Shown: positions 4,082 to 58,493 of the stretch, one piece after another | Numbering within the stretch: the stretch's first letter is position 1 | How the letters are laid out: every line of letters starts with the position of its first letter | From: Phycisphaerae bacterium | GTDB lineage: Bacteria > Planctomycetota > Phycisphaerae > SM23-33 | Direction: 5' to 3' | DNA length: 64,000 nucleotides | NCBI GenBank assembly: GCA_041946855.1 | Contig: JBHGBE010000006.1 | Location: 16,999-80,998, forward strand | Made by a program: the position numbers and the translations under genes | Notes under the pieces: generated by a model | What the model was told of the DNA's origin: nothing | What the model saw: only the letters and a program-made list of their open reading frames with translations | Databases searched by the model: none

Positions 4082-6847
4082 TCACTTGCTCGGCTCCGCC
4101 GCGTCGACCTTCGCCGCCAGGTCGTACAGCTTCCTGGAGCGTTCCTGCCAGCCGGAAATCATGTACAAGTAGTAGCCGACCCAGCCGCCGTCGCTGTGCC
4201 AGTCGTGGATGCGCCAATAGGCGTCCATTGGCTGGAAGCCCTCCAGCGCGTGCGGCGACAGTCCCATCGCGATCGCGCGGTTGCGCTCGGCTATCATGTC
4301 CTTGCACCGCGCCGCCAGTTCCGGCGGGAGCTTCCCGCTTTCCAGCGCCCGCTCGACGGCGATTCGGGCCTCGCACTCCTCGACGCCCTCGCGGAGCATT
4401 TCGAAGCGGGCCGTGGCGACCGGACCATCGGGCCCCGGCCCCAGCATGGCGATCTTGATATTGAGGTTCCGCCAGTTGGCCTTGGGATATCGCTCGAAGA
4501 TGCGCCCTTCGGGCTCGCCCCTCTTGTTCTTTAGCACCGGCCAGAAGTCCGCGCCCCATCGGCCGAAGCCGCGCTGGTCGCCGCCGACGTTCATCTCGCC
4601 GATGAGCCGCGGGACGGTCAGCCGGCCGGACTCGGTGAAATCGCGCGCGAACTGCGCCATCAGCCGGCCGTTCTTCCAGCCCTGCCGGCTAGTGCCGTCG
4701 TACGAGATGAACCTCGGCGCCCACACCGCGACAGTGTACGCCACGGGCACGTCGTAGAGCTTGTCGCGATAGGGGTGGGCGGCGCTCGCCCACGGGACGC
4801 CCGGCAGCAGTTCCCTCCAGAGGCTGACTACCGCCGGCGTGGGTGCGGCATCGGTCGCGAGGCCCAGCGCCATGACCTTTTCCATCCCGCGCTTCTTCAT
4901 CCGCGCCATCAACTCCTCGGCCGGCAGCCGCCATAGTTCCTTCGCGCCGGCCTCGGAGTACTGCGGGAGCTGGAGCTTGGACGCCTTGTCGCCCTCCAGG
5001 ACAGTGACCTCCGGCCCTTTGCCCTTGTAGCCGAACCGGTCCTCGCGGACCTTTTCGCCCTCCAGCCTCTGCACCTCATCGCCAAACTGCCCGCCCTCCA
5101 GGAAGTTGTCCCACACGACGAAGCAGATCACCTTCGGCGGCCCCTGCTCCTTTGCGACCGTGTCCAGGTACTTCTCCATGACGGTGAAGTCATAGTTGTA
5201 CTTGCCGTCCGGCTGCCTGATCCATCGCACCATGGATTGCTCGTTGCCCAGGTTCGTCTCGGCGATGAGCGGAACGTAGCACGTGCTCGCGCCGATCTGT
5301 CCCGTCAGCCGGAGCGACTTGGCGATGAGTTTCCAATGGTCATCGGACCAGGGCTTCACCCCGTACTCCGAGGCGAGCGTGTCCGGCGACTGGATGAGCT
5401 CGACGAATGTGCGGTAGTCCTTCGGGTCGGGAAGCCTGAAACCTGAAACGCTTAGCTGCACCGGGACCGAAAAGGACTTCTCGTTCGCGGCGATGGTGAG
5501 CGTCCCACCGTACTGGCCGGGCTTCGCATCGGCCGGCACCTTCACCGTCACCCAGACCGGGACGACCGCGCCGGCGACTGGGGCGGGCTGTCCCGGCAGC
5601 GTCCGCACGGCCCCGGGATTGGGCTTTTTCGCGCGCACCGGGACTTCCGCGGGAGGCGACTCCAGCAGCGAATCGAACTTGTTGACATCAGTGGCCTTCC
5701 GGGGCAGGTCGGGAGCGGCGAACCGCAGCGCGACACTGCCGGCCGGGATGGATGCGCCGCCGGGCGCGGCCAGGTCCGTGATGCTTGCCTTGAGATTTCT
5801 CAGCGCGCTGTCGGCGCCGACCAGCACCTTTCCGGAAAACGTGCCATTGCGAGTTCCGGCTATCTGGATCGGCTTGAGCGGCTCATTCGGGTCGCCCCAG
5901 TCCACGTCCGTGTCTGTCGAGAGCAGGCTGGAATTCCAGACCCGTACCCCCGCGGACCTTGTCGCGTTGGGCACGAGGCCGTCCTTCCCCGAGGCCTCCA
6001 GCCGGGCCGAGTGCAGCCCGCACGTGTCCCATAGGAAGTAGGCCAGCCCGGAATCCGCCTTCATCGCCGCGACTTTTTCATATGCATCCTTGGGCATTGG
6101 GGCGCGGTGGAGCGATATCGCCAGGACATTTGTACCCTTTTTCAGCATGTCGGAGGGGACCTCGACCTCCACGCTTCGCAGCCGGAGCTTCAGCCGCTCG
6201 CTCTTGGAACCCTTACGGCCGTAACCTTCCGGCAGGCTCCCATCCTCCAGGAAGTACGCCTCGTGCGGATAGACCTCTGCCGGCGTCTGGGGTCCGAGCT
6301 GGCCATTCTTGGGCAGATGGTCGCGCAGCAGTTCCTTGCCGTTGACGAAGACGGCCACCCCGCCCCTGTAGGTCATCGAGAGCTTCAGTCCCTTGACCTT
6401 CGCGGGGTCATCGACGTGGAACCTCGCTCGCAGACACTCCTGCGCGACCGCCAGCGACCCGGCCTGGCAGTAGATGAACCCTACGTTCGCCCGCGCGCAT
6501 TCCTCCCAGTGGCTCCAGCTCGACAGGGGCGCGCCGACCAGCCGCACCCACTGAGAATCGTCGAACTGGGCCGATGTCCAGTCCTTCGGCGGCGCAGGCG
6601 TATTGCACGGAGCACCGATCTCCTTGAGCGTCTCGCCGTCGCTTACCACCGGCGTGCGCAGCGTCAAAAAGAACCGCCAGAAGCCGCTCGTGTCGAGGAC
6701 AACCGTTTGGCCCTGCTCCTGCGCCGCAGCTTGCGTGGCCGGCTTGCCGGCCGGGCCGCTCGCGGCCGGCGCGGCGATGCCGCATGTCGTTGCCGCAAGC
6801 AGCGCCACTGCCATCGTCAGTGCCCTGAATCCGCATCGCTCAAACAT
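4082..6847 (-). CDS. Large secreted hypothetical protein (~920 aa), possible glycoside-hydrolase-like fold
   Basis: Long ORF. Start placed at MFERCGFRALTMAVALLAATTCGIAAPAAS, giving a positively charged n-region, hydrophobic core and AxA-like cleavage site. No catalytic family recognised with certainty. Confidence 0.55.
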   Translation of the reverse strand: MFERCGFRALTMAVALLAATTCGIAAPAASGPAGKPATQAAAQEQGQTVVLDTSGFWRFFLTLRTPVVSDGETLKEIGAPCNTPAPPKDWTSAQFDDSQWVRLVGAPLSSWSHWEECARANVGFIYCQAGSLAVAQECLRARFHVDDPAKVKGLKLSMTYRGGVAVFVNGKELLRDHLPKNGQLGPQTPAEVYPHEAYFLEDGSLPEGYGRKGSKSERLKLRLRSVEVEVPSDMLKKGTNVLAISLHRAPMPKDAYEKVAAMKADSGLAYFLWDTCGLHSARLEASGKDGLVPNATRSAGVRVWNSSLLSTDTDVDWGDPNEPLKPIQIAGTRNGTFSGKVLVGADSALRNLKASITDLAAPGGASIPAGSVALRFAAPDLPRKATDVNKFDSLLESPPAEVPVRAKKPNPGAVRTLPGQPAPVAGAVVPVWVTVKVPADAKPGQYGGTLTIAANEKSFSVPVQLSVSGFRLPDPKDYRTFVELIQSPDTLASEYGVKPWSDDHWKLIAKSLRLTGQIGASTCYVPLIAETNLGNEQSMVRWIRQPDGKYNYDFTVMEKYLDTVAKEQGPPKVICFVVWDNFLEGGQFGDEVQRLEGEKVREDRFGYKGKGPEVTVLEGDKASKLQLPQYSEAGAKELWRLPAEELMARMKKRGMEKVMALGLATDAAPTPAVVSLWRELLPGVPWASAAHPYRDKLYDVPVAYTVAVWAPRFISYDGTSRQGWKNGRLMAQFARDFTESGRLTVPRLIGEMNVGGDQRGFGRWGADFWPVLKNKRGEPEGRIFERYPKANWRNLNIKIAMLGPGPDGPVATARFEMLREGVEECEARIAVERALESGKLPPELAARCKDMIAERNRAIAMGLSPHALEGFQPMDAYWRIHDWHSDGGWVGYYLYMISGWQERSRKLYDLAAKVDAAEPSK

Positions 6848-14270: not shown

Positions 14271-14621
14271 GGCAAGTTCTCCTTACTCATGGCGAGTGAA
14301 CGGTCAAACTAATAAGACACGGCGTTCCGATGAACGTAGTGTTGCGCGCGGAAGAGCTGTTCCCAAAGACTGACTGAATTCCGATTCGGCGTTCGCGGAT
14401 GGGAGCACGGCAAGTGGAAGACGAGCGAGTCCGGCGGACAAAATCGCCGCAACGGGCGCCGACCATGCCGCCCCAGGCTCCAGCGATGCCCTTTGCCGGT
14501 CCTGTCATACCCGGTGCGCCTTGTGAACGGTCTTCGACCGGGGTCAATATGAGTCCGCCACGCTTACGTATTCTACGCGGCGGGCAATCGGCTTGTCATC
14601 AGAAAAATGCGTACGGTTCAA

Positions 14622-14708
14622 CTGGGGACTGTCCCGCCGTTTGGGACTGTCCCCAGTTGCCAGGCCACGGCAGCCGGGGACAGTCCCAAACGACGGGACA
14701 GTCCCGGG
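14622..14708. repeat. REP-like long hairpin element (GGGACTGTCCC family, copy 1)
   Basis: 31-bp arms GGGGACTGTCCCGCCGTTTGGGACTGTCCCC and GGGGACAGTCCCAAACGACGGGACAGTCCCGG are reverse complements with one mismatch, separated by a 21-nt loop. A near-identical element lies at 57251-57342. Confidence 0.6.
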
Positions 14709-14803
14709 CGATAAAGATACTTGCGGAACCGCGCCGATCATGGACAATCCGCCAAACGGGTCCCGCCGCACTCGGGGCTCGGCTCATCCGGGAGACATGT
14801 GTA

Positions 14804-15883
14804 ATGGCGTCGGACGATCAACTGGCAATCGACCTCCACGACGTCGCCAAGGTCTACCGCCGGAAGGTGCATGCCCTGCGCGGCATCAGCATGCAGGTAC
14901 ACACCGGCGAGATCTTCGGCCTGCTGGGTGCGAACGGGGCCGGCAAGACCACGCTTGTGAAGATCATGATGACCATCGTCCGCCCGACCCGTGCCCGCGG
15001 GACGCTGCTGGGAAGGCCCATCGGTTCCAAGCCCACGCTGGCGCAGGTCGGCTACCTGCCCGAGCACCACCGTTTCCCGCCGTACTTGAAGGCGAAGGAG
15101 GCGCTGGCATACTACGCGGCCCTGGCACGAGTGCCCCGAGCGCAGAGGAAGGTCCGCATCGCCGATCTCCTGGCCCGCGTGGGCATGGCCGAGTACGCCA
15201 ACGCGAGGATCGGCACGTTCTCCAAGGGCATGATGCAGCGGATCGGCCTGGCGCAGTCGATGCTGAACGATCCCCGGCTGATCCTGCTGGATGAGCCGAC
15301 CGACGGCGTCGACCCCATCGGCAGGCGCGACATCCGCAACTCACTGCTGGAGCTCAAGCTGCTGGGCAAGACCGTCTTCATCAACAGCCACCTGCTGAGC
15401 GAGGTGGAAATGATCTGCGACCGCGTGGCGATCCTCCACCAGGGCCTGGTGGTCCGGCAGGGGCGGATCGCGGACCTGACGCGGGACCGCTCGTACTACG
15501 AGATCGAGCTCCAGATTGACCCGGCGACGGCAAGGGAGGCCGTCACGGCCGCGCTGGGCTGCAACTTGGTCGATGCCGCCGGGCCTGCTGCCGTGCAGGG
15601 CGCGACGGCCGTAGGGGTCGGGCAACTTCCCGACGGGCGCCGGGTGGAGCTTGACGGTGCGTTCATCCGTCTGGCCGCCGGCGATGCAGCCGGAATACAA
15701 GGCATCATCGACGCTCTGCGTCGGGCCTCGCTGACCATAAAGGCGATCCGCCCCGTCCGGCAATCGCTGGAGGACTTCTTTATCCAGACCGTGGAGTCGC
15801 AGCCGACGGAAGCCCCCGGCCGTCCCAACAATGCGCCTCCGCCATACCTGCCGGCGTCGCCCGCGGCGGGAGGCCGGGCATGA
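14804..15883 (+). CDS. ABC transporter ATP-binding protein (ABC-2/exporter type)
   Basis: Walker A GANGAGKTT, signature FSKGMMQRIGLA, Walker B LILLDEPTDGVD. Start chosen at MASDDQ with GGGAGA upstream, because the track ORF extends through the REP element. Confidence 0.85.
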   Translation: MASDDQLAIDLHDVAKVYRRKVHALRGISMQVHTGEIFGLLGANGAGKTTLVKIMMTIVRPTRARGTLLGRPIGSKPTLAQVGYLPEHHRFPPYLKAKEALAYYAALARVPRAQRKVRIADLLARVGMAEYANARIGTFSKGMMQRIGLAQSMLNDPRLILLDEPTDGVDPIGRRDIRNSLLELKLLGKTVFINSHLLSEVEMICDRVAILHQGLVVRQGRIADLTRDRSYYEIELQIDPATAREAVTAALGCNLVDAAGPAAVQGATAVGVGQLPDGRRVELDGAFIRLAAGDAAGIQGIIDALRRASLTIKAIRPVRQSLEDFFIQTVESQPTEAPGRPNNAPPPYLPASPAAGGRA

Positions 15884-17085
15884 GCCAGACCCTCGCCATC
15901 TTCGTCGATCAATACCGCGCCCTGAAGGCGCGCAAGATGTTCTGGATCGTCCTGGCCATCTCCGGGCTGGTGGTCCTCGCGTTCGGCGCGATCGGCATAG
16001 ACGACAAGGGCATGACCATCCTGGGCTGGTCCATCGGGCTGGAGATGCTCAGCACGAGCCACATGACGCGGGCGTTCTTCTACAAGTCGCTGTTCAGCGG
16101 GCTGGGGATCGGGTTCTGGCTGAGCTGGCTGGCGGCGCTGCTGGCGCTGATCTCCACCGGCGGCATCTTCCCGGAGTTCATCTCGAGCGGGGCCATCGAC
16201 CTGACGCTCTCCAAGCCCATCAGCCGCATCCGCCTGTTCCTGACGCAGTACGTCGCGGGCCTGCTCTTCGTGACGCTCCAGGTGGGCATCTTCTGCTGTG
16301 CTAGCTTCCTGGTGCTGGGTCTGCGGGGGGGAGTGTGGGAACCGTGGCTGTTCCTGGCGGTGCCGCTGGTGGTGGCCTTCTTCAGCTTCCTGTTCTCGGT
16401 ATGCGTGCTCTTGGGCGTGTGGACGAGGTCTACCGTCGCCGCCATCCTGCTGACGCTGCTGTTCTGGTTCCTCCTGTACATCCTGAACACGGCCGACGCG
16501 GGCCTGTTGGTGTTCAAGGCGTCCATGGAGCAAGAGGCCGCCAGGTCCGACAAGCAGCTCCGGCGGGTCCAGGAGCAGATCCATCAGGCGGAAGGAGGGG
16601 AAGACGCGAGGACAGGAGGACAGGAAGAGCGGAGGACAGGATCATCGCATCCGGCTAGTCAGGCCTCCCTTCCTCCAGTCGTCCCGTCCTCCCGTCCAGC
16701 GTCGGCAGCCTCCGCCAGGCGCACGTCGGGCCCATCCGAGAGCATGGATTCCCTCAAGGCCAGGGAAGGCCGGCTCCAGCAGGAGCGGGATGAGCGTCTC
16801 GCTACCGCGGCCGCACTGGGCAAATGGAATCGCGTCATCTACTGGATCAAGACCTTCCTGCCCAAGACTTCCGAGACAGTCGCCCTGCTGGAGCGCGCGA
16901 TGGTAACGAAGGCCGACATGCCCGATCTTCCAAGAGCCAGTCCCGACGCGCCGGATCGCGGCGCCGAGGATGTGACCAAGGAGCTACAGGGCCGCTCGGT
17001 GGCCTGGGTGCTGGGGACGAGCCTGGCCTTCGAGGCCGTCATCCTCGCGCTGGCCTGTTTCATCTTCTGTAGACGCGACTACTGA
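15880..17085 (+). CDS. ABC-2 family transporter permease with long low-complexity cytoplasmic insert
   Basis: ATGA overlap with the preceding ATPase gene and multiple hydrophobic TM segments. The insert contains a GGAGGACA octamer tandem array at 16607-16642. Confidence 0.7.
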   Translation: MSQTLAIFVDQYRALKARKMFWIVLAISGLVVLAFGAIGIDDKGMTILGWSIGLEMLSTSHMTRAFFYKSLFSGLGIGFWLSWLAALLALISTGGIFPEFISSGAIDLTLSKPISRIRLFLTQYVAGLLFVTLQVGIFCCASFLVLGLRGGVWEPWLFLAVPLVVAFFSFLFSVCVLLGVWTRSTVAAILLTLLFWFLLYILNTADAGLLVFKASMEQEAARSDKQLRRVQEQIHQAEGGEDARTGGQEERRTGSSHPASQASLPPVVPSSRPASAASARRTSGPSESMDSLKAREGRLQQERDERLATAAALGKWNRVIYWIKTFLPKTSETVALLERAMVTKADMPDLPRASPDAPDRGAEDVTKELQGRSVAWVLGTSLAFEAVILALACFIFCRRDY

Positions 17086-17092
17086 CCCGGCC

Positions 17093-20000
17093 TCATTCGG
17101 AGGCGAACCCCCTGCGCATCGTGTTCTCCGCGATCGTGCGGGCGTCCATGAACTGAAGGAGGTAATCCGGCCCGCCGGCCTTCGCGCCCACGCCGGATAG
17201 CTTCAGCCCCCCGAATGGCTGACGGCCGACGATCGCGCCGACGATTGCGCGGTTGATGTAGAGGTTCCCGACCTGAAACTCCTGCCGGCATTTCTCAATC
17301 CGCGATGGGCTGCGGCTGAACACGCCTCCGGTCAGGGCGAACGGCGTCGAGTTGGCCAGCTCAACGGCCTGGTCAAAGTCCTCCACTCGCATGACGGCCA
17401 GGACCGGGCCGAAGATCTCCTCCTGCGCCAGTCGGCTTTGCGGGCTGATGCCGCCGACGACGGTGATCGGCGCGTAGAACCCATCGGCCGGCACGTAGGC
17501 TGGTGGAGTCTGGTACAGGATCGCCCCCTCCTGGCGGGCCAGCTCGACATATCGCATTACCTTGTCCCGTGCGGCTGCGGAGATGACCGGTCCAAGGAAG
17601 TTCGCCGGATTCTCGGGCGGCCCGACCCGCAGCGACCGCGCGGCCGGGATGAGCCGCTCGACGAATCGCTCATACACGTCGCCCAGCACAATGGCCCGCG
17701 AGCAGGCCGAGCACTTCTGCCCAGCGTAGCCGAACGCCGACTGGATGACGGCCGGCACCGCCTCGTCCAGGTCGGCGTCGTCGTCGATGATGATCGCGTT
17801 CTTGCCGCCCATCTCGGCGATGACTCGCTTGACGGCCGTCTGGCCTTCGCCGGTCCGCGCCGCCCGCTCGACGATCCGCAGGCCGACCTGCATTGAGCCC
17901 GTGAACGCGACCAGCGCGATTCGCGGATGGTCGATCAGGTAATCGCCGATGACCTCCCGCCTGCCGGGGATGAAGTTGAGCACGCCCGGCGGCAGCCCCG
18001 CCTCGCGTAAGATGTCGCACAGCAGCCGCCCGACCACGGGCGAGTGCTCCGACGGCTTGTACACTACGCAGTTGCCCGCCACGATGGCGGCCGCGCACAT
18101 GCCGCAACTGATCGCCAGCGGAAAGTTCCACGGCGCGATGACGGCCGCCACGCCCTTGGGCTGGTAGACGTACTCGTTCAGCTCGCCCGGCGAATCCCCA
18201 AGAAGCCAAGGGCCGCCCAGGCGGATCATCTGGCGGGCGTAGTACTCTAGGAAGTCGATAGCCTCGCACACATCCGCGCAGGCCTGGTTCCATTGCTTGC
18301 CCACCTCGAAGACCTGCCACGCGGCCAGTTCATATATGCGCTTTCGCGCGACTGCGGCCGCGCGGATGAGATGCTCGGCGCGATCGCGCGGCCGCACATC
18401 CCGCCAGGCGCGGAATGCCTCGTGCGCGGCACCGATGGCGGCATCGACCTCCTTGACGCCAGCCTGGCATATCCGGCCAACTATCTCGGCAGGACGGGCC
18501 GGGTTGACCGAGTCCCACAGGTCATCGGTGGCTACATCCTTTCCGCCGATGAAGAGCCTGTGCGTCCGGCCTAGCTGCTTACGCACCGCGGCCAGCGCGG
18601 CCGTGAATGCCTCGCGCACGACCGCGTGAGTGAAGTCCGCGGTCGGTTCGTTGCGGAAGGGCGGCAGATCATCGGTGTCCCGCGGCCGCTGTGCATCGGC
18701 CGGTTGTGGCGTGGGCCTCTGGCCCGCGCGTCTCGCGGCCGTCCCGGCCGCGATTTCCGCAGGCGAGACGCCTTCGGAACGCGCGGGCGAGACGCCCATG
18801 CCACTATTCTCCGATGCGTCCTTTGGCCGACTGACCTCGATCTCTTCCCGGCTCTCCTGCGCCTCCTCGACTGCCGTCCGCGGATCGGCCAATAGCCGCC
18901 GACGGAGGCCCTCATCCGCCTTCTGCGTGAATGTCTGCCGCAGGAACGATTCGTTGGACGTGTTCTCCAGCAGGCGGCGGATCAGGTACGCCATGCCCGG
19001 CAGCATCGCTCCGTGCGGACAATAGAGCCGCACCCTTCCGGCGAGCTTCAGGAGCGCCTTGCGGAACGGCTCGGCCATGCCGTGCAGCACCTGGAACTCG
19101 TACCGGTCCTCAGGCACGCCAAACTCGCGGGCCATCTCCATCACCGCGCTGGCCGTGCGGACGTTGTGCGTCCCGCAGGCCAAATGGCAGATGTCGCTGT
19201 GCCGCAGCAGCTTCTCGGCGTTGCGCTCGAACGATGCATCGGTCTGGGCCTTGACCGTGTAGACCGGCACGGGCCAGTTGTTCTGCCGCGCGATCACCAC
19301 CTCCTGGTCCCAGTACGCGCCCTTGACGAGGCGGATGGATATCCTCAGCCGCCGCTGCCGCGCCCAGGCGAGCAGGTCGTCGGTGTCGCGGTCCGTGTCC
19401 CGCAGATACGCCTGCACCGCCACGCCCAGGCGCGGGTAATCGCGAAACTCGCCGTCCTCGCGCAGCCGTCGATAGACCTCCAGCGTCAGGTCCTTGAGCC
19501 TGTACGCCTCCATGTCGATGCACATGAAGCCGCCGATGGCGACGACCTTGCGCCCGATCACCCGCAGCCGCTCCAGAATTCGCCCGGCCGATCCCTCGAA
19601 GTCCATCGCGCTGGCCTGTGAGTAGAGGGCCGACGGCTTGACGGAGACGTTGATCCGCGGCGCGTGGCCCCAGTCCAGGTCGCCCGCGCCGCCGCCCAGT
19701 GCCGGCCAGTCCTTCTGCGCCCCGGCCAGCTCATCCAGCAGCGCCAAGTACGTCGCGACGTACCGCTCGCTCTCATCCTCGCTGACCGTCGCCTCGCCCA
19801 GGACGTCCAGCGTGAACGCGAACCCATCCCGCCTCAGCGCCGTCAGGGCCGCTACCGTTTCGGCCGCATCCGCACCGACGATGAACTGCCGGGCCATGCC
19901 CTCGACCTGCCCGCGAATGGTCCTGCCGAGCACTCTCTCACCAAGTCCGCCCAGCAGGCCGGCCCCCGCCAGGCCGACTTTCAGGAACTCCGGCACGCCC

Positions 20001-20239
20001 TCCCGCCCCGCGAAGTACTCGTCCAGGTGGCGCGACAGCGACTGACTCGTCGCCAGCGCGGGCAGCACGTCGACGAACCGGAAGAGTTGAACCTTGAACG
20101 GCTCGTGCCTCATGCACCATTCGATGAGCTTGCCCGACCAGGTCGAGCGATTGAAGGCGGATGGGCGCTCGTCGCCGATGCAATCGAAGAACTCCATGCC
20201 TCGCGAGATGATCCGCTCATCAAGTCTGTTCCTGTCCAT
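17093..20239 (-). CDS. putA: Bifunctional proline dehydrogenase / L-glutamate gamma-semialdehyde (P5C) dehydrogenase
   Basis: 1048 aa. The N-terminal half is a proline dehydrogenase TIM barrel. The C-terminal aldehyde dehydrogenase has catalytic FGYAGQKCSACSR and EMGGKN motifs. An ~80-aa low-complexity linker joins the two halves. Confidence 0.85.
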   Translation of the reverse strand: MDRNRLDERIISRGMEFFDCIGDERPSAFNRSTWSGKLIEWCMRHEPFKVQLFRFVDVLPALATSQSLSRHLDEYFAGREGVPEFLKVGLAGAGLLGGLGERVLGRTIRGQVEGMARQFIVGADAAETVAALTALRRDGFAFTLDVLGEATVSEDESERYVATYLALLDELAGAQKDWPALGGGAGDLDWGHAPRINVSVKPSALYSQASAMDFEGSAGRILERLRVIGRKVVAIGGFMCIDMEAYRLKDLTLEVYRRLREDGEFRDYPRLGVAVQAYLRDTDRDTDDLLAWARQRRLRISIRLVKGAYWDQEVVIARQNNWPVPVYTVKAQTDASFERNAEKLLRHSDICHLACGTHNVRTASAVMEMAREFGVPEDRYEFQVLHGMAEPFRKALLKLAGRVRLYCPHGAMLPGMAYLIRRLLENTSNESFLRQTFTQKADEGLRRRLLADPRTAVEEAQESREEIEVSRPKDASENSGMGVSPARSEGVSPAEIAAGTAARRAGQRPTPQPADAQRPRDTDDLPPFRNEPTADFTHAVVREAFTAALAAVRKQLGRTHRLFIGGKDVATDDLWDSVNPARPAEIVGRICQAGVKEVDAAIGAAHEAFRAWRDVRPRDRAEHLIRAAAVARKRIYELAAWQVFEVGKQWNQACADVCEAIDFLEYYARQMIRLGGPWLLGDSPGELNEYVYQPKGVAAVIAPWNFPLAISCGMCAAAIVAGNCVVYKPSEHSPVVGRLLCDILREAGLPPGVLNFIPGRREVIGDYLIDHPRIALVAFTGSMQVGLRIVERAARTGEGQTAVKRVIAEMGGKNAIIIDDDADLDEAVPAVIQSAFGYAGQKCSACSRAIVLGDVYERFVERLIPAARSLRVGPPENPANFLGPVISAAARDKVMRYVELARQEGAILYQTPPAYVPADGFYAPITVVGGISPQSRLAQEEIFGPVLAVMRVEDFDQAVELANSTPFALTGGVFSRSPSRIEKCRQEFQVGNLYINRAIVGAIVGRQPFGGLKLSGVGAKAGGPDYLLQFMDARTIAENTMRRGFASE

Positions 20240-20882: not shown

Positions 20883-23213
20883 ATGGCGATCGGATTCTGG
20901 ACTGAAGGCGTCTCAAAGACCTCAATCGGGCGCTTCGGCGGATATCGCGACGACTGTATCCCCTATGATGACGGCTACCTGACCTGCGGGGCGACGGCCG
21001 TCGACGTGTTCCTTGAGCGCCGCGACGACCTCAAGGAGGACCTGGGCCACTACCTGCTGCCGCCCAACTTCCGCCAGAAGACCCGTTCGACCTGGACGCT
21101 CAAGCGGTACGACTTCCGCCTGGCCAGCGGCGTCTCCCATTCGACTGTCTTCCGTTCACTGCTGTTCCCCGGCTTCCTGCACCGCGTCAAGACCGGCCGG
21201 TTCGAGTACTACTGGCGGCTGCGGAACTACGGCGCGACGGACCTGGTCCTTCCCCTGGCGGACGGCCTCAAGCACGTCCGCGGGACGGCCGGCTACGACC
21301 GCCAGCGAGACGGCGACCTGACGCGCCCGTGGGTGCTGTTCTACTTCTCCAGGTCGGCCATGCCGTTCGACTACCCGATGCTCCTGGTCTTCGACAAGCA
21401 GCCGGAGAAGATAGAGGTGTGGACGCACGAGTACCTCAAGGTCCACTTCAAGGACAGGAAGGCGACGGTAGTTCAGGTTCACCCGTTCGGGGCCCAGCGC
21501 CTCGACAAGGAGGCGACCAAGGCGTGGGCGGCCGGCCTGCCGGAGGATGTCGCCGCCAAGATGGATTTCTGGGCGGCCGCCGCGATGAACTACCCCGTGG
21601 CGTGCAAAGAGACCTACCGCGTCGATGAGAAGCAGGGCGTTGTCCGCATCCGCGACGAGTACAGCTACGAGCGGTCGAAGTGCGCATGGCCCGTCAAGCC
21701 TGTCGAGCTTGCGCCTCTGCCGCCGATCCTTGCCAACGCGCGGCACTGCGGCTATCCGGTCAAGATGAGCGGCAAGCTTCTGGAAAAGCTCTGCCCGACG
21801 TTCATGGGCTGGTACGAGGCCGTGCCGGGCTCGACCATCGAGTACGAGCTTCCGCTGTCGCGGTTCCGCAACCACGTGCTGGCGCCGATGATGGTCAAGA
21901 ACGACCCGACGGCCGACGAGGTGACCGCTAAGCTCACCGAATACCTGGAAAGCGGTGATTACCGCACGTTCGGCGGCGACGACCATTACGACCCCAGCAC
22001 CTCGCTCGACTCGCTGCACGACCTGCGAATCATGGCCTGGGCGCTCTGGTCAATCGATCCCGAGAAGCGCGCCAAGGTGCTGGAGTTGCTCACACGCGGC
22101 CTGGGCAACTTCGACTTCAAGGAGTTCCTCCGCTACAGGACGCCCGTCACCGGCACGCCGTGGGCCAGGCACAAGACGATCTTTGATTACCTGGGCGAGA
22201 TCGACTACGACATGGAGTGGTACAACGGCATGAACCTGGCCGGCCTGTGGGCGTGGGCGTATTTCGGCCAGGACCCCAAGGCCGATGAGTTCCTTCGCCG
22301 GCACTGGACGCTGGCCCAGGAGATCAACGCGTACTCGCTGGCCTACACCGACTGGGCGCAGCAGACCGCGTGGACATGCTGCCGCGGCGAGGCGACCTGG
22401 CTGGACGGCATCAACTACGCATACGAGGGGATGCTCGGCTACGCGGCCATGGCCCGCCGGCTGGGCAAGCGAAAGGATGCGCAGCTCGGCGACTATCTGG
22501 CGGCAAAGTGCGAGGCGTTCATCCACAACTGCTGGATGGGCAGCTCGTACGCGCAGGAGTTCTTCGCGTACGAAGGCGCGAAGCCCGGCTGCATGGGCGG
22601 GTTTTACGAGGGCCGCGGGCCGCGTTACGGCGAGGCCTCCGGCTGGCCGTGCGGCACGTACTCGTACTTCGTCCGCGAGGTCTTCATGCTCCTGAGCGAC
22701 CTGGGCTTGCAGGACGCGCTCCGGCAGGAGCTCGACAACTTCACGCGCAACTTCCCCAACTGGCGGACCGACCCGTACAGCTACGGCAAGGCCACGAACT
22801 ATCCGGGCAGCGATTACAGGCGGACCGTGCATCACTACTCGCTGGATCCGCGCCTGGCGGTCTGCGCGTTGGTCCTTGGCGAGGATGCGTCGAGTCTGCT
22901 CAAGCTCCAAGGCGCGCCGCTGACGGGGCCGGTGCTGGAGACGATGCTCGTGGCGATGGCCCCGCGCGTCCTCGTGCCGCGCGATGTGACGTTCCAGGGC
23001 TGCGTCTGGGACGCCGCCGCAAGGAAGCTTACCGTCACGCTGGCCGGCAAGGGCAGAACCACCATCGGGCTGGCCCACAGCGATGCGCCCTGCGCCGTGA
23101 GGGCAGACAAGCTGCTGACGACGGGCCAATCCCCCGGCCGGATGTGGTTCACGATCAAGCTGGCGGGAAGAACGGAGATTGTCTTTGAGTTCGGCTCCGG
23201 GCCTTCAACTTGA
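20883..23213 (+). CDS. Large cytoplasmic hypothetical protein (777 aa), possibly carbohydrate-active
   Basis: Start MAIGFWTEG with GAGAGG upstream and no signal peptide. Trp/Tyr-rich C-terminal half; no confident family assignment. Confidence 0.55.
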   Translation: MAIGFWTEGVSKTSIGRFGGYRDDCIPYDDGYLTCGATAVDVFLERRDDLKEDLGHYLLPPNFRQKTRSTWTLKRYDFRLASGVSHSTVFRSLLFPGFLHRVKTGRFEYYWRLRNYGATDLVLPLADGLKHVRGTAGYDRQRDGDLTRPWVLFYFSRSAMPFDYPMLLVFDKQPEKIEVWTHEYLKVHFKDRKATVVQVHPFGAQRLDKEATKAWAAGLPEDVAAKMDFWAAAAMNYPVACKETYRVDEKQGVVRIRDEYSYERSKCAWPVKPVELAPLPPILANARHCGYPVKMSGKLLEKLCPTFMGWYEAVPGSTIEYELPLSRFRNHVLAPMMVKNDPTADEVTAKLTEYLESGDYRTFGGDDHYDPSTSLDSLHDLRIMAWALWSIDPEKRAKVLELLTRGLGNFDFKEFLRYRTPVTGTPWARHKTIFDYLGEIDYDMEWYNGMNLAGLWAWAYFGQDPKADEFLRRHWTLAQEINAYSLAYTDWAQQTAWTCCRGEATWLDGINYAYEGMLGYAAMARRLGKRKDAQLGDYLAAKCEAFIHNCWMGSSYAQEFFAYEGAKPGCMGGFYEGRGPRYGEASGWPCGTYSYFVREVFMLLSDLGLQDALRQELDNFTRNFPNWRTDPYSYGKATNYPGSDYRRTVHHYSLDPRLAVCALVLGEDASSLLKLQGAPLTGPVLETMLVAMAPRVLVPRDVTFQGCVWDAAARKLTVTLAGKGRTTIGLAHSDAPCAVRADKLLTTGQSPGRMWFTIKLAGRTEIVFEFGSGPST

Positions 23214-23217
23214 GAAT

Positions 23218-23277
23218 CGAACATTGAGTGTTGATTATTGAATATTCAATATTCAATCAGCAATGCTCAATGTTCAA
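23218..23277. repeat. AT-rich heptad/palindromic element (family 2, copy D): TTGAATATTCAATATTCAAT...CAATGCTCAATGTTCAAG
   Basis: Lies between convergent stops at 23213 and 23320. Contains the perfect palindrome TTGAATATTCAA and a CAATGYT tandem heptamer. It is related to the element at 35688-35798. Confidence 0.45.
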
Positions 23278-23319
23278 GTTTCAGATTGCCTATGATGGCC
23301 CGATTGACTGTTCACGCGG

Positions 23320-25715: not shown

Positions 25716-25887
25716 GCCGACGCTGTCTCCATCTCCGGATCAGGCGGACAAGGCGCGTCTCACGCGGCGACTCATAGCCGCATCGCGGGCACTTGGCCTT
25801 GCGGCACCCGCCGAACACCGCGCATGCCGAGCACGCCCTGACGGCCGCCTCTTCGTCGAACTCATTTCCGCAGAAAGGGCATCTCAT
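25696..25887 (-). CDS. Small zinc-ribbon protein (63 aa), translationally coupled to feoB
   Basis: MRCPFCGNEF...CSACAVFGGCRKAKCPRCGYES: two CxxC pairs followed by an Arg-rich tail. Its ATG overlaps the feoB TGA (ATGA), and its 3' end overlaps the feoA start by 20 nt. Confidence 0.45.
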   Translation of the reverse strand: MRCPFCGNEFDEEAAVRACSACAVFGGCRKAKCPRCGYESPRETRLVRLIRRWRQRRHDKSTC

Positions 25888-27992
25888 AGGTGTATTCCCA
25901 GATTGCCCAGGGCGTCGAGCGCCAGGTTCAGCACGAACCCGACGCCGAATGCGAACACCGCGATGAACGCGGAGACCAGCAGCGTCATCCTCAGGCCGCG
26001 CTCCTTCCTCATCACCAGGAACTGCGCGATGCACGGTAGGAACAGCGTCAACGTGACGGCCGCCACTACGAGCTGGTTGCCCATCAGGAGGTCCTTCGTG
26101 TGCAGGTCGTACAGGCCGGCGATGCCGTAGTCGCGCCTGAAGAAGCCGAACAGGAACGCCTGTGCGGCCTGGCCGGGCAGGCCCAGCGCCTTGACTATCG
26201 GCGTCAGGCCGTTGATGACGATCTGGAACACGCCGCCCTCCGGCAGCAGGCCCCACCAGTCCAGCCGGCAGACCCAGATGATCGCGCTGGCGATGATGAA
26301 CAGCGGCAGCACCTCCTTGAAATACCAGACCATCCTCGTGTAGGTCTTGACCAGCACGTTTCCCACGCGCGGCAGGCGGAGAGGCGGAAGCTCCATGTAG
26401 AATGCCGGGCGCTCGCCAGGCATGAACTTCGCCGCCAAGAGCCCTGCCGCCAGGAACACGGCGGCTATCACGCCGGCCCAGACCGCCATCGCGGCCGGGT
26501 GGCCCTCCAGCAAGCCCAGTATCACGCCGATCTGCGCCGAGCACGGGACCGCCAGCGCCAGCAGGAACGTCGCGATGACCCGCTCGCGGCGTGTCTCGAG
26601 CGTCCGCGTGACCATCGTGGCCATGGTGTCGCAACCGAAGCCCAGCACCATCGGGATGACCGCACGGCCGTTGAGGCCGATCCGCTTGAACACGCGGTCA
26701 ACGAGCATCGCCAGCCGCGGCAGGTAGCCGCTGTCCTCCAGTATCGAGAACGCCAGGAAGAACGTGCCGACGATTGGGAAGACAATGGCGATGGCGTAGC
26801 GCAGGCCCAGCGTGATGATGCCGTAGTCGCCGCCGAAGAGGTCCCGCAGGATCGGCCAGGGGATGGTCGCGGCGGCCGTGCGGTCGATCCAGCCGCTGAC
26901 GTAGTCCTTGAACAGGCCCTCCAGTCCGTTGACCATCACGCCCGCGCCCAGGCCGCCGACGAACTTGTACAGCCCCAGGTAGAGCACCGCAAACAGTAGC
27001 GGCAGGCCCGTCCACGGGCTCATGCACAGCTCGCTCAGACGGTCGCGGAGCGTGTGCGAGCGGCGTGGGGGCAGCACGGCCGTGTCCTTCAGTATGCGGT
27101 CCACGCGGCCCTTGACGGCCATCGCCGTGTGATAGTGCGGCGTGTGGCGGAGGGCCATCGTCACGTCCCAGACGAGGCCCGACACGGCCGCCGCGTGGTC
27201 GTCGCCCGCCTCCTCGCGGAGCAACTGGCGCATCTCGTGATCGCCGTGGATGAGCAGGATCGCCCGCGTCCGCCGGCCGATCCCGTCGCCGTCGCCGACG
27301 TGCGGCTGGATCGCGGCGATGGCCTTTTCGATTACCGGGCCGTAATCGACCTTGAAGGAATTGCGGAATGCGGAATGCGGATTGCGGATTCCAGGAGGCG
27401 CAGACTGACTCCCAGGCAATCCGCATTCCGCATTCCGCATTCCGCAATCAGACCTGATTCTTCCGGCAAGTTCCGCCAATCCCTTGCCCGACGTGGCCAC
27501 GGTCGGCACGACTGGTATTCCGAGGGCCTTTTCCAGCGCGGCGCAGTCGATGCGGATGCCGGCCTCCTGGGCCTCGTCCCACATGTTCAGGGCCAGCACC
27601 ACTGGCAGGCCGGCCTCGACCAACTGAAGCGTCAAGCCCAGCATCCGCTCGATGCTCTTTGCGTCGATGACGTGTACGACGGCCGCGGGCGTCCGCCGCA
27701 GCAGGATCGACCGCGCCACTCGCTCCTCATCCGTGATCGGCAGCAGCGAGTACATGCCGGGCGTGTCGATGACCTCGGCGTCCAGCAGCCTGGAGCGGCC
27801 GCGTGATACCTCGACGGTCGTGCCGGGGTAATTGGATACCGTGACGTACCGGCCGGTAAGCCGGTTGAATAGCGCGCTCTTGCCGACGTTCGGGTTGCCG
27901 ACGATGAAGATGGCGCCCGCGCCAGCCTCGCTTGGAGGCCGGTGGGAATCGCCCGCGCCTTCCTTTTCAACAACCGCACCGATACGGCCCAT
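25884..27992 (-). CDS. feoB: Ferrous iron transporter FeoB
   Basis: G-domain motifs GNPNVGKSALFN, DTPG, NMWD, then a polytopic membrane domain. Start at MGRIGAVV with GGAG upstream. Confidence 0.85.
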   Translation of the reverse strand: MGRIGAVVEKEGAGDSHRPPSEAGAGAIFIVGNPNVGKSALFNRLTGRYVTVSNYPGTTVEVSRGRSRLLDAEVIDTPGMYSLLPITDEERVARSILLRRTPAAVVHVIDAKSIERMLGLTLQLVEAGLPVVLALNMWDEAQEAGIRIDCAALEKALGIPVVPTVATSGKGLAELAGRIRSDCGMRNAECGLPGSQSAPPGIRNPHSAFRNSFKVDYGPVIEKAIAAIQPHVGDGDGIGRRTRAILLIHGDHEMRQLLREEAGDDHAAAVSGLVWDVTMALRHTPHYHTAMAVKGRVDRILKDTAVLPPRRSHTLRDRLSELCMSPWTGLPLLFAVLYLGLYKFVGGLGAGVMVNGLEGLFKDYVSGWIDRTAAATIPWPILRDLFGGDYGIITLGLRYAIAIVFPIVGTFFLAFSILEDSGYLPRLAMLVDRVFKRIGLNGRAVIPMVLGFGCDTMATMVTRTLETRRERVIATFLLALAVPCSAQIGVILGLLEGHPAAMAVWAGVIAAVFLAAGLLAAKFMPGERPAFYMELPPLRLPRVGNVLVKTYTRMVWYFKEVLPLFIIASAIIWVCRLDWWGLLPEGGVFQIVINGLTPIVKALGLPGQAAQAFLFGFFRRDYGIAGLYDLHTKDLLMGNQLVVAAVTLTLFLPCIAQFLVMRKERGLRMTLLVSAFIAVFAFGVGFVLNLALDALGNLGIHL
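27356..27449. repeat. In-frame palindromic heptamer element inside feoB (GCGGAAT/GCGGATT arrays as 33-bp inverted arms)
   Basis: Left arm AATTGCGGAATGCGGAATGCGGATTGCGGATTCC is separated by a 22-nt spacer from right arm GGCAATCCGCATTCCGCATTCCGCATTCCGCAATC. It falls between the FeoB G-domain and helical domain. The repeat tracts encode DCGMRNAECG and PGIRNPHSAFRNS within the linker ...RSDCGMRNAECGLPGSQSAPPGIRNPHSAFRNS.... Confidence 0.6.
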
Positions 27993-28042
27993 CTTCGCAC
28001 TAACTCCGCAAGGCCCGCTCGTTTCCGCCGCGAGCCCTGAAC

Positions 28043-31051: not shown

Positions 31052-31064
31052 GCACACGGAAACG

Positions 31065-31122
31065 GCAGAAGCGCCTGACGGCAAGCCAATCACGATGCTG
31101 GCTTGCCGTTAGGCGCTTCTGC
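31065..31122. terminator. 24-bp-stem hairpin between the convergent DUF2203 and flotillin genes (candidate bidirectional terminator)
   Basis: GCAGAAGCGCCTGACGGCAAGCCA-(10 nt)-TGGCTTGCCGTTAGGCGCTTCTGC, one mismatch, starting 14 nt after the stop at 31051. Confidence 0.5.
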
Positions 31123-31142
31123 CGTCTCCTCAGTTGGTAATT

Positions 31143-56292: not shown

Positions 56293-57246
56293 GTGAAGTC
56301 AGCCTCGATTGTCCTATCGGCCATTGTCGCATTGTCGCTGCCGGCCTACCTGGCGGCACAGGATGCCCCCAAGCCGTCGACCGCCCCGACGACGGCCTCG
56401 AAGCCCGCCGGCACGCCCGTCGTCATGGCGACCGTCGGCGAGGCGAAGATCATGTCCGACCGCGTGGACAAGATCTTCACGATGATCAATCCCAACAAGG
56501 ACATCCCGGCCGACAAGGTCCAGACCGTGCGCGACGCCATCCTGGGCAAGATGATCATGCAGGAGCTGGCGCGGGTCTACGTCACCGCGAAGAAGATCGA
56601 GGTCGGCGACGCCGACATGAAGGAGCAGAAGGACGCCATCGCCAAGCAGGCGGCGCAGCTTGGCGTGACGGTCGAGAAGTTCATGGACGACAACGCCATC
56701 ACGCCGGGGATGCTTCACGACGAGGCCTGCCTCAAGAAGATGGTCAGGGAGACGACCACCAAGGAGAAGGTGGACGCCTACATCAAGGCGCACCCCGACT
56801 ACTTCGACGGCACGAAGGTCAAGGCCAGCCACATCCTGGTCAAGGTCGAGCCCTCCGACTCCACCGAGGTCCAGAAGAAGGCCCTGGCGAAGATCAAGGA
56901 CATCGCCGCGAAGCTCAAGTCCGGCGAGATCAAGTTCGAGGACGCGGCCAGGCAGTTCAGCGACTGCCCCTCGAAGGACAAGGGCGGCGACCTCGGCGAG
57001 TTCACGTTCGAGCGGATGGTGCCGCAGTTCTCCATCAAGGCGTTCGCGACGGGCGTCGGCGACACGTCGGACATCGTCCGCACTCAGTTCGGCTTCCACA
57101 TCATCAAGGTCACCGACCGCAAGGCGGGAAAGGACGCTCCGGGCGATGAGGCCGCGGCAGCCGCCAAGAACGCGATGATCTCGGATGCGGAGACGGCAAT
57201 CTTCGAGCTGGGCATGACTACCTGCCCGATAGTCATCAACAAGTAG
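56293..57246 (+). CDS. PpiC-type peptidyl-prolyl cis-trans isomerase (SurA/PrsA-like), secreted
   Basis: GTG start with AAGGAG 7 nt upstream, signal peptide, and the parvulin motif ...ASHILVKV...GGDLGEF...GFHIIKV.... Confidence 0.8.
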   Translation: MKSASIVLSAIVALSLPAYLAAQDAPKPSTAPTTASKPAGTPVVMATVGEAKIMSDRVDKIFTMINPNKDIPADKVQTVRDAILGKMIMQELARVYVTAKKIEVGDADMKEQKDAIAKQAAQLGVTVEKFMDDNAITPGMLHDEACLKKMVRETTTKEKVDAYIKAHPDYFDGTKVKASHILVKVEPSDSTEVQKKALAKIKDIAAKLKSGEIKFEDAARQFSDCPSKDKGGDLGEFTFERMVPQFSIKAFATGVGDTSDIVRTQFGFHIIKVTDRKAGKDAPGDEAAAAAKNAMISDAETAIFELGMTTCPIVINK

Positions 57247-57250
57247 AGTA

Positions 57251-57342
57251 CCGGGGACTGTCCCGTCGTCTGGGACTGTCCCCAGTTGTTATTCCCGAGG
57301 GTAACCGGGAGCAGTCCCACACTGCGGGACGGTCCCCGACGG
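57251..57342. repeat. REP-like long hairpin element (GGGACTGTCCC family, copy 2) between convergent stops
   Basis: CCGGGGACTGTCCCGTCGTCTGGGACTGTCCCC-AGTTG...-CCGGGAGCAGTCCCACACTGCGGGACGGTCCCCGACGG. Same arms and same AGTTG loop start as copy 1 at 14622-14708. Confidence 0.6.
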
Positions 57343-57351
57343 CCAGCGTTT

Positions 57352-58443
57352 CTATTGCGTGAGCAGGACCGCGTCGGCGGCCGATGCCAGGAGCGTGACT
57401 GCCTGGCCCTCCGCAGGCGGGATGCCCGCGCCGGCCAACTGCGACACGCGCCAGATCGCGCCATTTGCCAGCCGACAGGTGAACTGGCGAATTTCGCCAA
57501 GATAGGTCGCCGAGACTATCGTCGCGGGCAGGCGGCACTCCGCGCCTGCCCCGGCGCCGTCGGCCGAGGCCGAGATGCTCAACCGCTCCGGCCTGATACA
57601 GACGGTGACCGGCGCTCCAACCGCTAGAGGCTTCTCTGACGCCGCAGCCAGCCTGCCGACAGGCGTTTCCACGACGGCCCGGCCGCCCGCGGTTTCGCTG
57701 ATTCGCCCGTCGATGAAGTTCGCCTCGCCCAGGAAGTCGGCAACGAACCGCGTGGCGGGACGGTCGTAGAGCTCCTGCGGCGGGCCGGACTGTATGATCC
57801 GCCCGGCGTTCATCACGGCGATGCGGTCGGCCATCGAAAGCGCCTCTTTCTGGTCGTGAGTAACGTACACGGCCGTCATGCCGGCCGCCTTGACAAGCTG
57901 CCGCAGCTCGTGACGCATATGGAGGCGGAGGCGGGCGTCGAGGTTCGACAGCGGCTCATCCAGCAGGAGGCACCGCCCCCTGGCCGCCAGCGCGCGGGCA
58001 AGCGCCACGCGCTGCTGCTGCCCGCCGGAAAGCTGGCTTGGCTTGCGCCGTGCGAAGTCGGCCATCTGCACCAGCGCCAGGTTCTCCGTGGCGACCCTTC
58101 TCCGCTCGTCGCGGCCAAGGCCCTGCATCTTGGGTCCGAATTCCACGTTCTGCCCGACTGTCATGTGCGGCCAAAGGGCGTAGTTCTGGAAGACCATTGC
58201 CGTGCGGCGCCGCTCGACGCTCAGGCCCGTAACGTCGTCGTCGTCGAAGTAGACCCGTCCGCCCGACGGCTCGACCAGCCCTGCGATTATACGCAGGAGC
58301 GTCGTCTTGCCGCAGCCGCTGGGACCAAGCAGGAAGAAGAACTCGCCGGAGACGATGTCAAGGCTGACGCCGTCCACCGCGCGGACCGCCCCGGCGGCCG
58401 AGGGGTAGAGCTTGCTGATGTTGTCCAGCCGTATGTCGGTCAT
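57352..58443 (-). CDS. ABC transporter ATP-binding protein (Fe3+/polyamine importer type with C-terminal TOBE domain)
   Basis: Walker [36 protein letters not shown], and a C-terminal MOP/TOBE-like domain. Start at MTDIRLDN. Confidence 0.85.
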   Translation of the reverse strand: MTDIRLDNISKLYPSAAGAVRAVDGVSLDIVSGEFFFLLGPSGCGKTTLLRIIAGLVEPSGGRVYFDDDDVTGLSVERRRTAMVFQNYALWPHMTVGQNVEFGPKMQGLGRDERRRVATENLALVQMADFARRKPSQLSGGQQQRVALARALAARGRCLLLDEPLSNLDARLRLHMRHELRQLVKAAGMTAVYVTHDQKEALSMADRIAVMNAGRIIQSGPPQELYDRPATRFVADFLGEANFIDGRISETAGGRAVVETPVGRLAAASEKPLAVGAPVTVCIRPERLSISASADGAGAGAECRLPATIVSATYLGEIRQFTCRLANGAIWRVSQLAGAGIPPAEGQAVTLLASAADAVLLTQ

Positions 58444-58448
58444 TATCA

Positions 58449-58493
58449 ATTGCAGATTGTAGATTGCAGATTGCAGATTGGCATACTGCAATC
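58449..58493. repeat. GCAGATT heptamer array (x4) filling the permease-ATPase intergenic gap
   Basis: ATTGCAGATTGTAGATTGCAGATTGCAGATTG plus inverted partner GCATACTGCAATC, within the 53 nt between stop 58497 and ATG 58443. Confidence 0.6.

Follow-up and report, generated by a model that had tools for sequence, protein, structure and literature searches.

Classical repetitive extragenic palindromes (REPs) are lineage-specific, and the systems formed by REP doublets that fold into hairpins (REPINs) and REP-associated tyrosine transposases (RAYTs) are, in the prevailing view, inherited almost only vertically. TIRtrons consist of RAYT-like genes, termed TIRYT (for tyrosine transposases associated with terminal inverted repeats), flanked by repeats sharing the motif GGGGWSAS (Di Nocera et al. 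2013, PMC3733652); these terminal inverted repeats (TIRs) include self-complementary ones, others that are found as dimers or clusters, and others again that constitute moderately abundant dispersed families (PMC3733652), while the distribution of TIRYT systems across phyla is patchy (PMC3733652, PMC6006769). Quentin et al. (2018) gave the consensus as GGGG[AT][CG]A[CG], equated TIRYT with the TnpA_REP-like subclass 2.1, and found no REP-like structures for this subclass (PMC6006769). In this study, we analysed a 64,000-nt stretch of a Phycisphaerae bacterium contig (GenBank:JBHGBE010000006.1, positions 16,999 to 80,998; hereafter the window), which contains an 87-nt hairpin at positions 14622-14708, upstream of a transporter (copy 1), and a degenerate second copy between two convergent genes (copy 2). 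The element is probably a REPIN-like non-autonomous repeat, similar to a miniature inverted-repeat transposable element (MITE), that belongs to a RAYT/TIRYT-type system with a Y1 (HUH) tyrosine transposase.

Structure of the hairpin and its second copy

Folding of 14622-14708 as RNA gave a minimum free energy of -78.4 kcal/mol, compared with -40.4 +/- 3.5 kcal/mol in 200 dinucleotide shuffles (z -10.8), none of which (0/200) was as stable, and position 14622 was paired with 14708; as single-stranded DNA, the same segment folded at -42.3 kcal/mol (z -8.5). Both folds bear out the hairpin that the initial annotation had placed here. Its arms had been described as 31 bp long, which was right as to their being long and slightly too low as to their length, since the inverted-repeat search gave arms of 37 nt (14625-14661 and 14669-14705, 92% complementary, separated by a 7-nt gap). 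These arms are made up of a near-palindromic 11-mer, GGGACWGTCCC, in four exact copies which, named by their central base, follow the order T,T, loop, A,A, with 7 nt between the members of each pair. Matches to GGGACWGTCCC with at most one mismatch numbered 8 in the window, versus 1.9 +/- 1.5 expected, and 0 of 100 shuffles reached 8.

Each half of the hairpin (11-7-11 plus flanks) is also a short imperfect palindrome of the size of a REP unit (about 20-40 nt). The left half was detected as a separate inverted repeat (I2, 17-nt arms, 94% complementary). Taken alone as single-stranded DNA, the left half folded at -19.2 kcal/mol (z -7.0) and the right half at -13.6 kcal/mol (z -4.2), each around a central 1x1 mismatch. 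Together, the two inverted units form one long hairpin, as in a REPIN, and the layout T,T / A,A is found in both copies 1 and 2.

A second, degenerate copy with a matching loop start had been reported near 57251-57342, and we located it at 57252-57338. Its RNA fold had a free energy of -63.2 kcal/mol (z -5.9), its left arm was as in copy 1, with exact T-forms at 57254 and 57272, and its A-forms were degenerate, at 57308 (GGAGCAGTCCC, 2 mismatches) and 57326 (GGGACGGTCCC, 1 mismatch). The junction CCCCAGTTG is common to the two copies, and a search of the 64-kb window for additional degenerate copies gave nothing above chance. Two more members of this subfamily, GGGACTGTCCC-N7-GGGACTGTCCCCAGTTG, were found in metagenome contigs, one as a doublet and one as a single half, with the same CAGTTG junction and similar 7-nt spacers. 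The four subfamily copies have the left flanks caactg, gtaccg, ccgatg and ccgcag, and the right flanks gggcga, cgacgg and cgccac. That copy 1 is nearly perfect suggests a recent origin.

It was also noticed that two Logan contigs of SRR29307520 carrying the neighbouring genes (L120 and L121) end inside the hairpin, at about window positions 14648 and 14676, leaving the 27-nt loop region unassembled between them; a repeat-induced break or a drop in coverage at a strong palindrome could explain this. The hairpin of copy 1 also breaks short-read assemblies at this spot.

Distribution and conservation of the paired module

The paired pattern GGGACWGTCCC-N5-9-GGGACWGTCCC was scanned for in one genome per GTDB species (596 Gb) and was present in at least 119 genome loci. 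The counts that follow are those among the matches listed, in which record titles name about 18 phyla (the labels being those of the records), locus GC ranges from 0.32 to 0.81, and several genomes give multiple loci, several per contig. The two 11-mers of the module are in direct orientation and 5-9 nt apart, with a unit spacing of 16 to 20 bp. The central base was the same in both members in 113 of 143 pairs, the other 30 being mixed, and an A.A or T.T mismatch is therefore retained at the centre of the stem formed between the units. Covariation was seen at the closing pairs (outer, G-C 57 and A-T 22; inner, C-G 74 and T-A 12), complementarity ends one base past the 11-mers, and the quadruple A,C,G,T was seen in 19 cases, which favours a hairpin between the units over two independent palindromes. 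Read from these sequences, the unit folds into a hairpin whose arms, N-GGGAC-W-GTCCC-N', span 13 bp and whose loop has 3-7 nt; position -1 is G in 67 of the 109 same-letter pairs. Inverted doublets of the form T,T / A,A, as in the window, also occur in loci from Oxalobacteraceae, Anaerolineaceae, Gaiellaceae and other Planctomycetota.

Gene context was assigned by our own crude gene calling from open reading frames (ORFs) and GC at third codon positions (GC3). Among 93 clearly intergenic occurrences, 37 were convergent, 47 tandem and 9 divergent, and the module lay mostly 0-60 nt past a stop codon. All-against-all BLAST of the ORFs from the at least 119 listed loci revealed no shared adjacent protein family; only large housekeeping ones (ABC-F, SDR, OmpR) recurred as neighbours. 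The same-letter bias, the covariation, the position at gene 3' ends and the absence of a shared neighbour indicate that the bulk of the loci are one kind of object.

At the gathering threshold, Rfam gave 0 matches in the window, nor did it match the module in any of 18 loci, and at E <= 10 it gave only sub-threshold matches to generic long hairpins (miRNA precursors). The exact 11-mer was absent from the bacterial literature searched by full text, the returns being eukaryotic primers and similar. The repeat family is absent from Rfam and from the searched literature; the double symmetry of its stem is unusual, and its distribution is unexpectedly wide.

The preference for sites just past stop codons and the enrichment between convergent genes, together with the high stability of both window hairpins, would also suit a primary function at the RNA level, as a terminator, attenuator or stabiliser, with copy 1 acting on the ABC-2 exporter operon as a leader element, the role suggested in the initial annotation. 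In low-GC Omnitrophota and Planctomycetia, moreover, A-runs and T-runs stand on either side of the module, as they would in an intrinsic terminator that works in both directions. However, neither full hairpin of the window is followed by a U-tract, a terminator scan gave nothing for copy 1 and, for copy 2, no more than an inner stem of 5 bp, the genes on either side of copy 1 are divergent and so need no terminator between them, and the A-form and the U-form are about equally frequent in the sense strand of the upstream gene (about 15 versus 20 times). Furthermore, no Rfam family matches, and hairpin function alone leaves the identity of the 11-mer across lineages, the kept mismatch and the clustering around transposase genes described below unexplained. 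We therefore regard an RNA-level function as unlikely to be the primary one; the hairpin may have a secondary, exapted effect as a terminator or stabiliser.

Several features of the distribution were noted in addition. In low-GC genomes, pairs lie upstream of gene starts at L040 6631, L077 5682 and L085 919 (Omnitrophota) and at L057 3522 and 4652 (Planctomycetales), with conserved flanks, gccagta...acgacaagataagta and agtactgcagca...GATAAGT, which suggests a promoter-associated subfamily. An Elusimicrobiota metagenome-assembled genome (MAG) has, at L111 1-225, a 56-bp tandem array of four copies, each consisting of GGGACTGTCCC and a degenerate GGGGACTGTCAC, directly upstream of a glutamate-synthase-like gene. 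A variant palindrome, GGGTCWGACCC, adjoins GGGACAGTCCC pairs in three Gaiellaceae loci (L022, L035, L108), and GGGTCWGACCC-N5-9-GGGTCWGACCC occurs six times in one 51-kb contig of the IMGVR giant-virus MAG GVMAG-S-404869-41 (L128-L135). In viral contigs, the real pattern was found in 5 loci, the GGGTCWGACCC variant in 9 loci in 4 contigs, and two scrambled palindromes in 1 each; on these counts, the module was rejected as a phage feature, with a control too small to say much.

A Y1 transposase gene flanked by the module in relatives

The initial annotation had proposed looking for a RAYT/IS200-like tyrosine transposase, and this look was positive in relatives. A search of the ORFs in the listed loci with Y1-transposase sequences yielded three Y1_Tnp genes, among them that of L084. 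In three orthologous Planctomycetota loci (L084, L140-L144 and L156-L159), a Y1/HUH gene has clusters of the 11-mer on both sides: 1) in L084, from a Planctomycetota MAG, [T]cgcag[T] lies 6 nt past the transposase stop codon, three A-forms precede the start by about 70 nt, and all five 11-mers of the 8-kb locus adjoin the Y1_Tnp gene, 2) the P0004 orthologue (85% identical) is carried by 12 contigs, the five shown coming from five separate samples, with T,T-29 nt-A,T on its upstream side and A,A at 3 nt past the stop codon, all six 11-mers of the 5.7-kb locus adjoining the transposase gene, and 3) the P0003 orthologue (86% identical) is preceded by four units and followed by two or three A,A pairs in tandem (4-6 units). 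Read on the coding strand, all three loci have T-forms upstream and A-forms downstream, and the gene order DUF202 - transposase - MG2/A2M is kept across them. The tandem GGGACAGTCCC-cgaggcg-GGGACAGTCCC pairs downstream of the transposase number three in L156/L158 versus two in L159, which come from different samples; this indicates that units are still being gained or lost.

The transposase protein carries NHFH as its HUH motif and YVERNPV as its Tyr motif, and it matched Pfam Y1_Tnp at 7.9e-15. A profile built from 23 homologues had E. coli TnpA_REP (4ER8) as its best PDB match (E 1.6e-7), followed by chains of ISDra2 TnpA; a PDB search with the single transposase sequence gave no match, so that the similarity was found only by the profile. 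The family comprises 3217 proteins at E <= 1e-20, many of them on contigs of 1-2 kb, as expected for a gene flanked by repeats.

More distant homologues of the transposase are flanked by other repeats, all starting with GGGGACA. These are small hairpins of the GGGGACATCCCCC type in L145 and L155 (75-77% identity), inverted pairs of AAAAGGGGACATTCTGCTTTTTC in L147 (64% identity), and plain TIRs, GGGGACATTCTACTT ... AAGTAGAATGTCCCC, with the stop codon inside the repeat, in L149-L154 (57-60% identity). L088, from an Aminicenantes MAG, also belongs here and is a textbook REPtron, with four GGGGACAYGTACC-N4-GGTACRTGTCCCC hairpins around a RAYT-like gene (4480-5310). A fifth hairpin of this kind lies at L088 6480-6510, about 100 nt from a GGGACAGTCCC pair.

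The A-form arm of the window element with its preceding G, for example unit 3, reads GGGGACAG and fits GGGGWSAS (motif from PMC3733652, PMC6006769), and the motif stands at the outer end of the repeat, as in TIRYT repeats. As judged from the sequence, the 11-mer hairpin is the GGGGWSAS motif plus its own complement. Owing to the same-letter preference, two GGGGACAG feet come to lie on one strand, which would fit an enzyme that reads single-stranded DNA.

Several points weigh against assigning the element to such a transposase system. First, no Y1_Tnp gene was found in the 64-kb window by a small-ORF scan and tblastn of the whole window. Second, the four subfamily copies have no consistent canonical REP tag, GTAG or CGTC, at the end of the palindrome. 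Third, the transposase protein scored 67.6 bits (E 1e-18) against the NCBIfam equivalog model REP_Tyr_transpos (NF047646), below the cutoff of 80, and is a relative rather than an equivalog. Fourth, the C-terminal helix-turn-helix (HTH)-like extension (Bac_DnaA_C, HTH_23 or HTH_28) described for subclass 2.1 (Quentin et al. 2018) was not found in the 23 homologues at Pfam E <= 1, Y1_Tnp being the only domain; their alignment has a conserved C-terminal extension corresponding to no named domain, and, as no Pfam HTH domain was detected, assignment to subclass 2.1 is not established. Fifth, in the module-bearing Actinomycetota locus L019 the Y1_Tnp gene is not flanked by the module. Finally, some of the at least 119 loci may be chance occurrences or unrelated hairpins, especially the 30 perfect mixed ones and the hits in isolate genomes; a rough back-of-envelope estimate, not a computed one, puts the chance expectation for the paired pattern in the whole collection at 10-50 hits, and a coding repeat in Amycolatopsis and the single isolate-genome matches are probably unrelated. 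As for the dispersed REP/BIME-like family of the initial annotation (BIME, bacterial interspersed mosaic element), its REP/REPIN-like character is supported by the transposase genes flanked by 11-mer arrays and by the two additional subfamily copies in metagenome contigs; the canonical GTAG/CGTC tag is absent.

The empty window could also mean a family of the same shape that has no Y1 transposase here, whether as relics of a lost system, as copies spread by recombination or gene conversion, or as a MITE of a DDE transposon. The degenerate right arm of copy 2 would be expected of decaying relics. On the other hand, copy 1 is nearly perfect, neither a target-site duplication nor a DDE-type terminal repeat was seen on the four subfamily copies, and the association of repeat and transposase is reproducible within the same phylum; such an origin is accordingly improbable in our judgement. 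A DDE-type MITE was in addition rejected by inspection, as direct repeats were seen beside none of the four copies in the subfamily.

Other candidates were likewise set aside. An integron attC site is a hairpin bracketed by the core sites R'' (RYYYAAC) and R' (GTTRRRY); by inspection, copy 1 has GTTCAAC in front of it but no GTTRRRY behind, and copy 2 is without both. For a tyrosine-recombinase core site, a promoter of an extracytoplasmic function (ECF) sigma factor and a G-quadruplex, the defining motifs were lacking or the spacing was variable (5-9 nt).

Gene surroundings and proposed origin of the two copies

Features of the window are listed in Table 1. Copy 1 is situated in a divergent intergenic region of 533 bp (14271-14803), and the hairpin ends 95-96 nt before the ATG of the ATPase gene at 14804, a start which agrees with an independent gene call in the Logan assembly; the gene starts thus support the initial description of this region and of the distance of about 96 nt. 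No plausible gene was seen among the small ORFs listed in the region. The 472-aa ORF to the left has a coding-like GC3 of 0.86 and a good ribosome-binding site, matched no Pfam family, and in a database of 5.8 billion proteins matched only itself; its NCBI name is 'hypothetical protein ACE15C_02680 [Phycisphaerae bacterium]'. The sigma-70-like sequence adjoining the left side of the element agrees with the consensus at 10 of 12 positions, with 0.1 such matches expected in shuffles, and is a consensus match only. An exact look-up of PutA (17093-20239) gave no match. Copy 2 begins 7 nt past the stop codon of the peptidyl-prolyl isomerase (PPIase) gene and ends 15 nt before that of the ABC/TOBE gene.

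Table 1. Positions of the hairpin copies, their parts and the adjoining genes in the window
Feature	Position	Strand	Remarks
Copy 1	14622..14708	.	Whole hairpin, a REPIN-like doublet: T-form units 1 and 2, then the loop, then A-form units 3 and 4
Left REP-like half	14619..14659	.	CAACTG-GGGACTGTCCC-gccgttt-GGGACTGTCCC-CAGTTG; imperfect palindrome, central T.T mismatch
Right REP-like half	14673..14709	.	GGGACAGTCCC-aaacgac-GGGACAGTCCC; central A.A mismatch
11-mer unit 1	14625..14635	.	GGGACTGTCCC, T-form, exact match
11-mer unit 2	14643..14653	.	GGGACTGTCCC, T-form, exact match
11-mer unit 3	14677..14687	.	GGGACAGTCCC, A-form, exact match
11-mer unit 4	14695..14705	.	GGGACAGTCCC, A-form, exact match
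Copy 2	57252..57338	.	Degenerate doublet of the CAGTTG-junction subfamily, between convergent genes
Orphan ORF, 472 aa	12852..14270	-	Left neighbour of copy 1, divergent from the exporter; context only
ABC-2 exporter	14804..17085	+	Right neighbour of copy 1; ABC ATPase (14804-15883, Pfam ABC_tran 8.6e-28) and ABC-2-type permease (15880-17085, ABC2_membrane_4 weak); context
Sigma-70-like promoter match	14570..14599	-	ATGACA-18-TAGAAT, directed towards the 472-aa gene
PPIC-type PPIase gene	56293..57246	+	Pfam Rotamase 6.5e-27; ends just before copy 2; context
ABC ATPase gene with TOBE domain	57352..58491	-	ABC_tran 3.1e-35, TOBE_2 4.1e-14; convergent on copy 2; context

Four near-identical palindromic sites in a long divergent region, next to a minus-strand sigma-70-like match, could be taken for an operator array at which a dimeric transcription factor acts on the orphan gene and the ABC-2 exporter. 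However, the element is also present between the unrelated convergent genes at copy 2, no gene family is consistently adjacent to it in the at least 119 loci, its unit spacing varies from 16 to 20 bp, and the covariation favours pairing between units over independent palindromes. Since only housekeeping families recur as neighbours, the idea of a regulon was dropped, and an operator appears very improbable.

Returning to a REPIN-like repeat mobilised by a Y1 enzyme, the T,T / A,A doublet of the window has the layout seen around the transposase gene in relatives, minus the gene. Gene removal is the usual origin of a miniature derivative, and we infer that the window doublet is the transposase-flanking arrangement from which the gene has been removed. 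The REP-like units would fold on single-stranded DNA, for instance at replication forks, where a transposase encoded elsewhere in the genome could recognise the GGGGACAG foot and the mismatched stem; by cutting and rejoining, it would let copies spread into tolerated intergenic sites. We regard the element as, most probably, a passenger at both sites of the window. Copy 2 occupies the usual niche of the family after stop codons, and its hairpin could also terminate or stabilise transcripts. The position of copy 1 upstream of the exporter is atypical, because the module lies mainly just downstream of genes and divergent regions are a minority; a site at which an insertion was tolerated is the better reading.

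Three other long hairpins were observed in the window. One, at 27360-27448, consists of GCGGAAT heptamer repeats with 31-nt arms (97% complementary) and lies inside the feoB frame (25884-28145, minus strand), in the linker between FeoB_N and FeoB_Cyto; it looks like an intragenic palindromic insertion that leaves the frame open. The others, at 31058-31129 (31-nt arms, 94% complementary, after the convergent DUF2203 and Band_7 genes) and 23206-23288 (AT-rich, 41-nt arms, after a 786-aa gene without Pfam family and an aldose epimerase gene, also convergent), have no sequence relationship to the GGGAC family. This genome seems to be given to long hairpins where the 3' ends of genes converge.

Implications and comparison with known systems

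For the 87-nt hairpin upstream of the transporter, neither a riboswitch-like leader nor an operator is a suitable annotation; it is better described as a copy of a selfish or commensal repeat. The analysis provides a searchable module, GGGACWGTCCC-N5-9-GGGACWGTCCC, tied to a RAYT-like transposase clade in Planctomycetota and to GGGGWSAS. Across many uncultured lineages, the 3' ends of genes are marked by this module. It is useful for annotating intergenic hairpins in MAGs, and it offers a handle on whether TIRYT-type enzymes mobilise hairpins and on how far REPIN-like systems cross phyla.

A further, tentative suggestion, which we hold as possible and short of likely, is that the (GGGACWGTCCC)x2 hairpin is the REP equivalent of TIRYT/subclass-2.1-like Y1 transposases, that is, a third, 'GGGGAC-footed' superfamily beside those with GTAG and CGTC. 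The stem is identical under about 18 phylum labels, among them Actinomycetota and Planctomycetota with high GC and Omnitrophota and Patescibacteria with low GC. If the suggestion were true, only the central A.A / T.T mismatch would distinguish the strands of a doubly symmetric hairpin, and either repeated horizontal spread of a REPIN-transposase pair, contrary to the view of almost exclusively vertical inheritance, or repeated re-invention of a minimal hairpin from the recognition motif would have to be assumed.

Of the systems to which the element may be compared, intrinsic terminators resemble it in the GC-rich hairpin just past stop codons and in the A/T-tract flanks in low-GC hosts, whereas here the window copies have no U-tract, the stem is fixed, the mismatch is kept and the repeat is linked to a transposase. 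IS200/IS605 elements and palindrome-associated transposable elements (PATEs) likewise depend on a Y1 HUH enzyme acting on imperfect subterminal hairpins in single-stranded DNA, and ISDra2 was the next-best PDB match; in IS200/IS605, however, the end hairpins have the same orientation on one strand, whereas here the halves are inverted, and the protein profile is nearer to TnpA_REP than to IS200 TnpA. In the BIMEs of E. coli, Y and Z types of REP alternate and motifs such as the integration host factor (IHF) site lie between them; the halves here are of the same type and inverted.

The REP/REPIN-RAYT systems of E. coli and Pseudomonas (Nunvar 2010; Bertels & Rainey 2011, PMC3116915) share with the present element a short imperfect palindrome whose inverted doublet makes a long hairpin, an extragenic location, in many cases at the 3' end of a gene, a transposase gene with its own repeats on either side, and TnpA_REP (4ER8) as the solved structure nearest to the transposase profile. 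They differ in that here no GT[AG]G (or CGTC) tag is present at the foot of the hairpin, the arms are themselves palindromic, so that nothing but the loop and the central mismatch sets the two strands apart, and the stem recurs under about 18 phylum labels. TIRtrons are alike in having a RAYT-like Y1/HUH gene flanked by inverted repeats with GGGGWSAS (here GGGGACAG), and the homologues found in this study include the plain TIR form, GGGGACATTCTACTT...AAGTAGAATGTCCCC; the difference is that the repeat described here is a true REP-like hairpin, in which the motif is joined to its own complement (GGGGAC-W-GTCCCC), and occurs in pairs. In kind, the feature is thus a known one, a REP/REPIN-like repeat of a RAYT/TIRYT-type tyrosine transposase.

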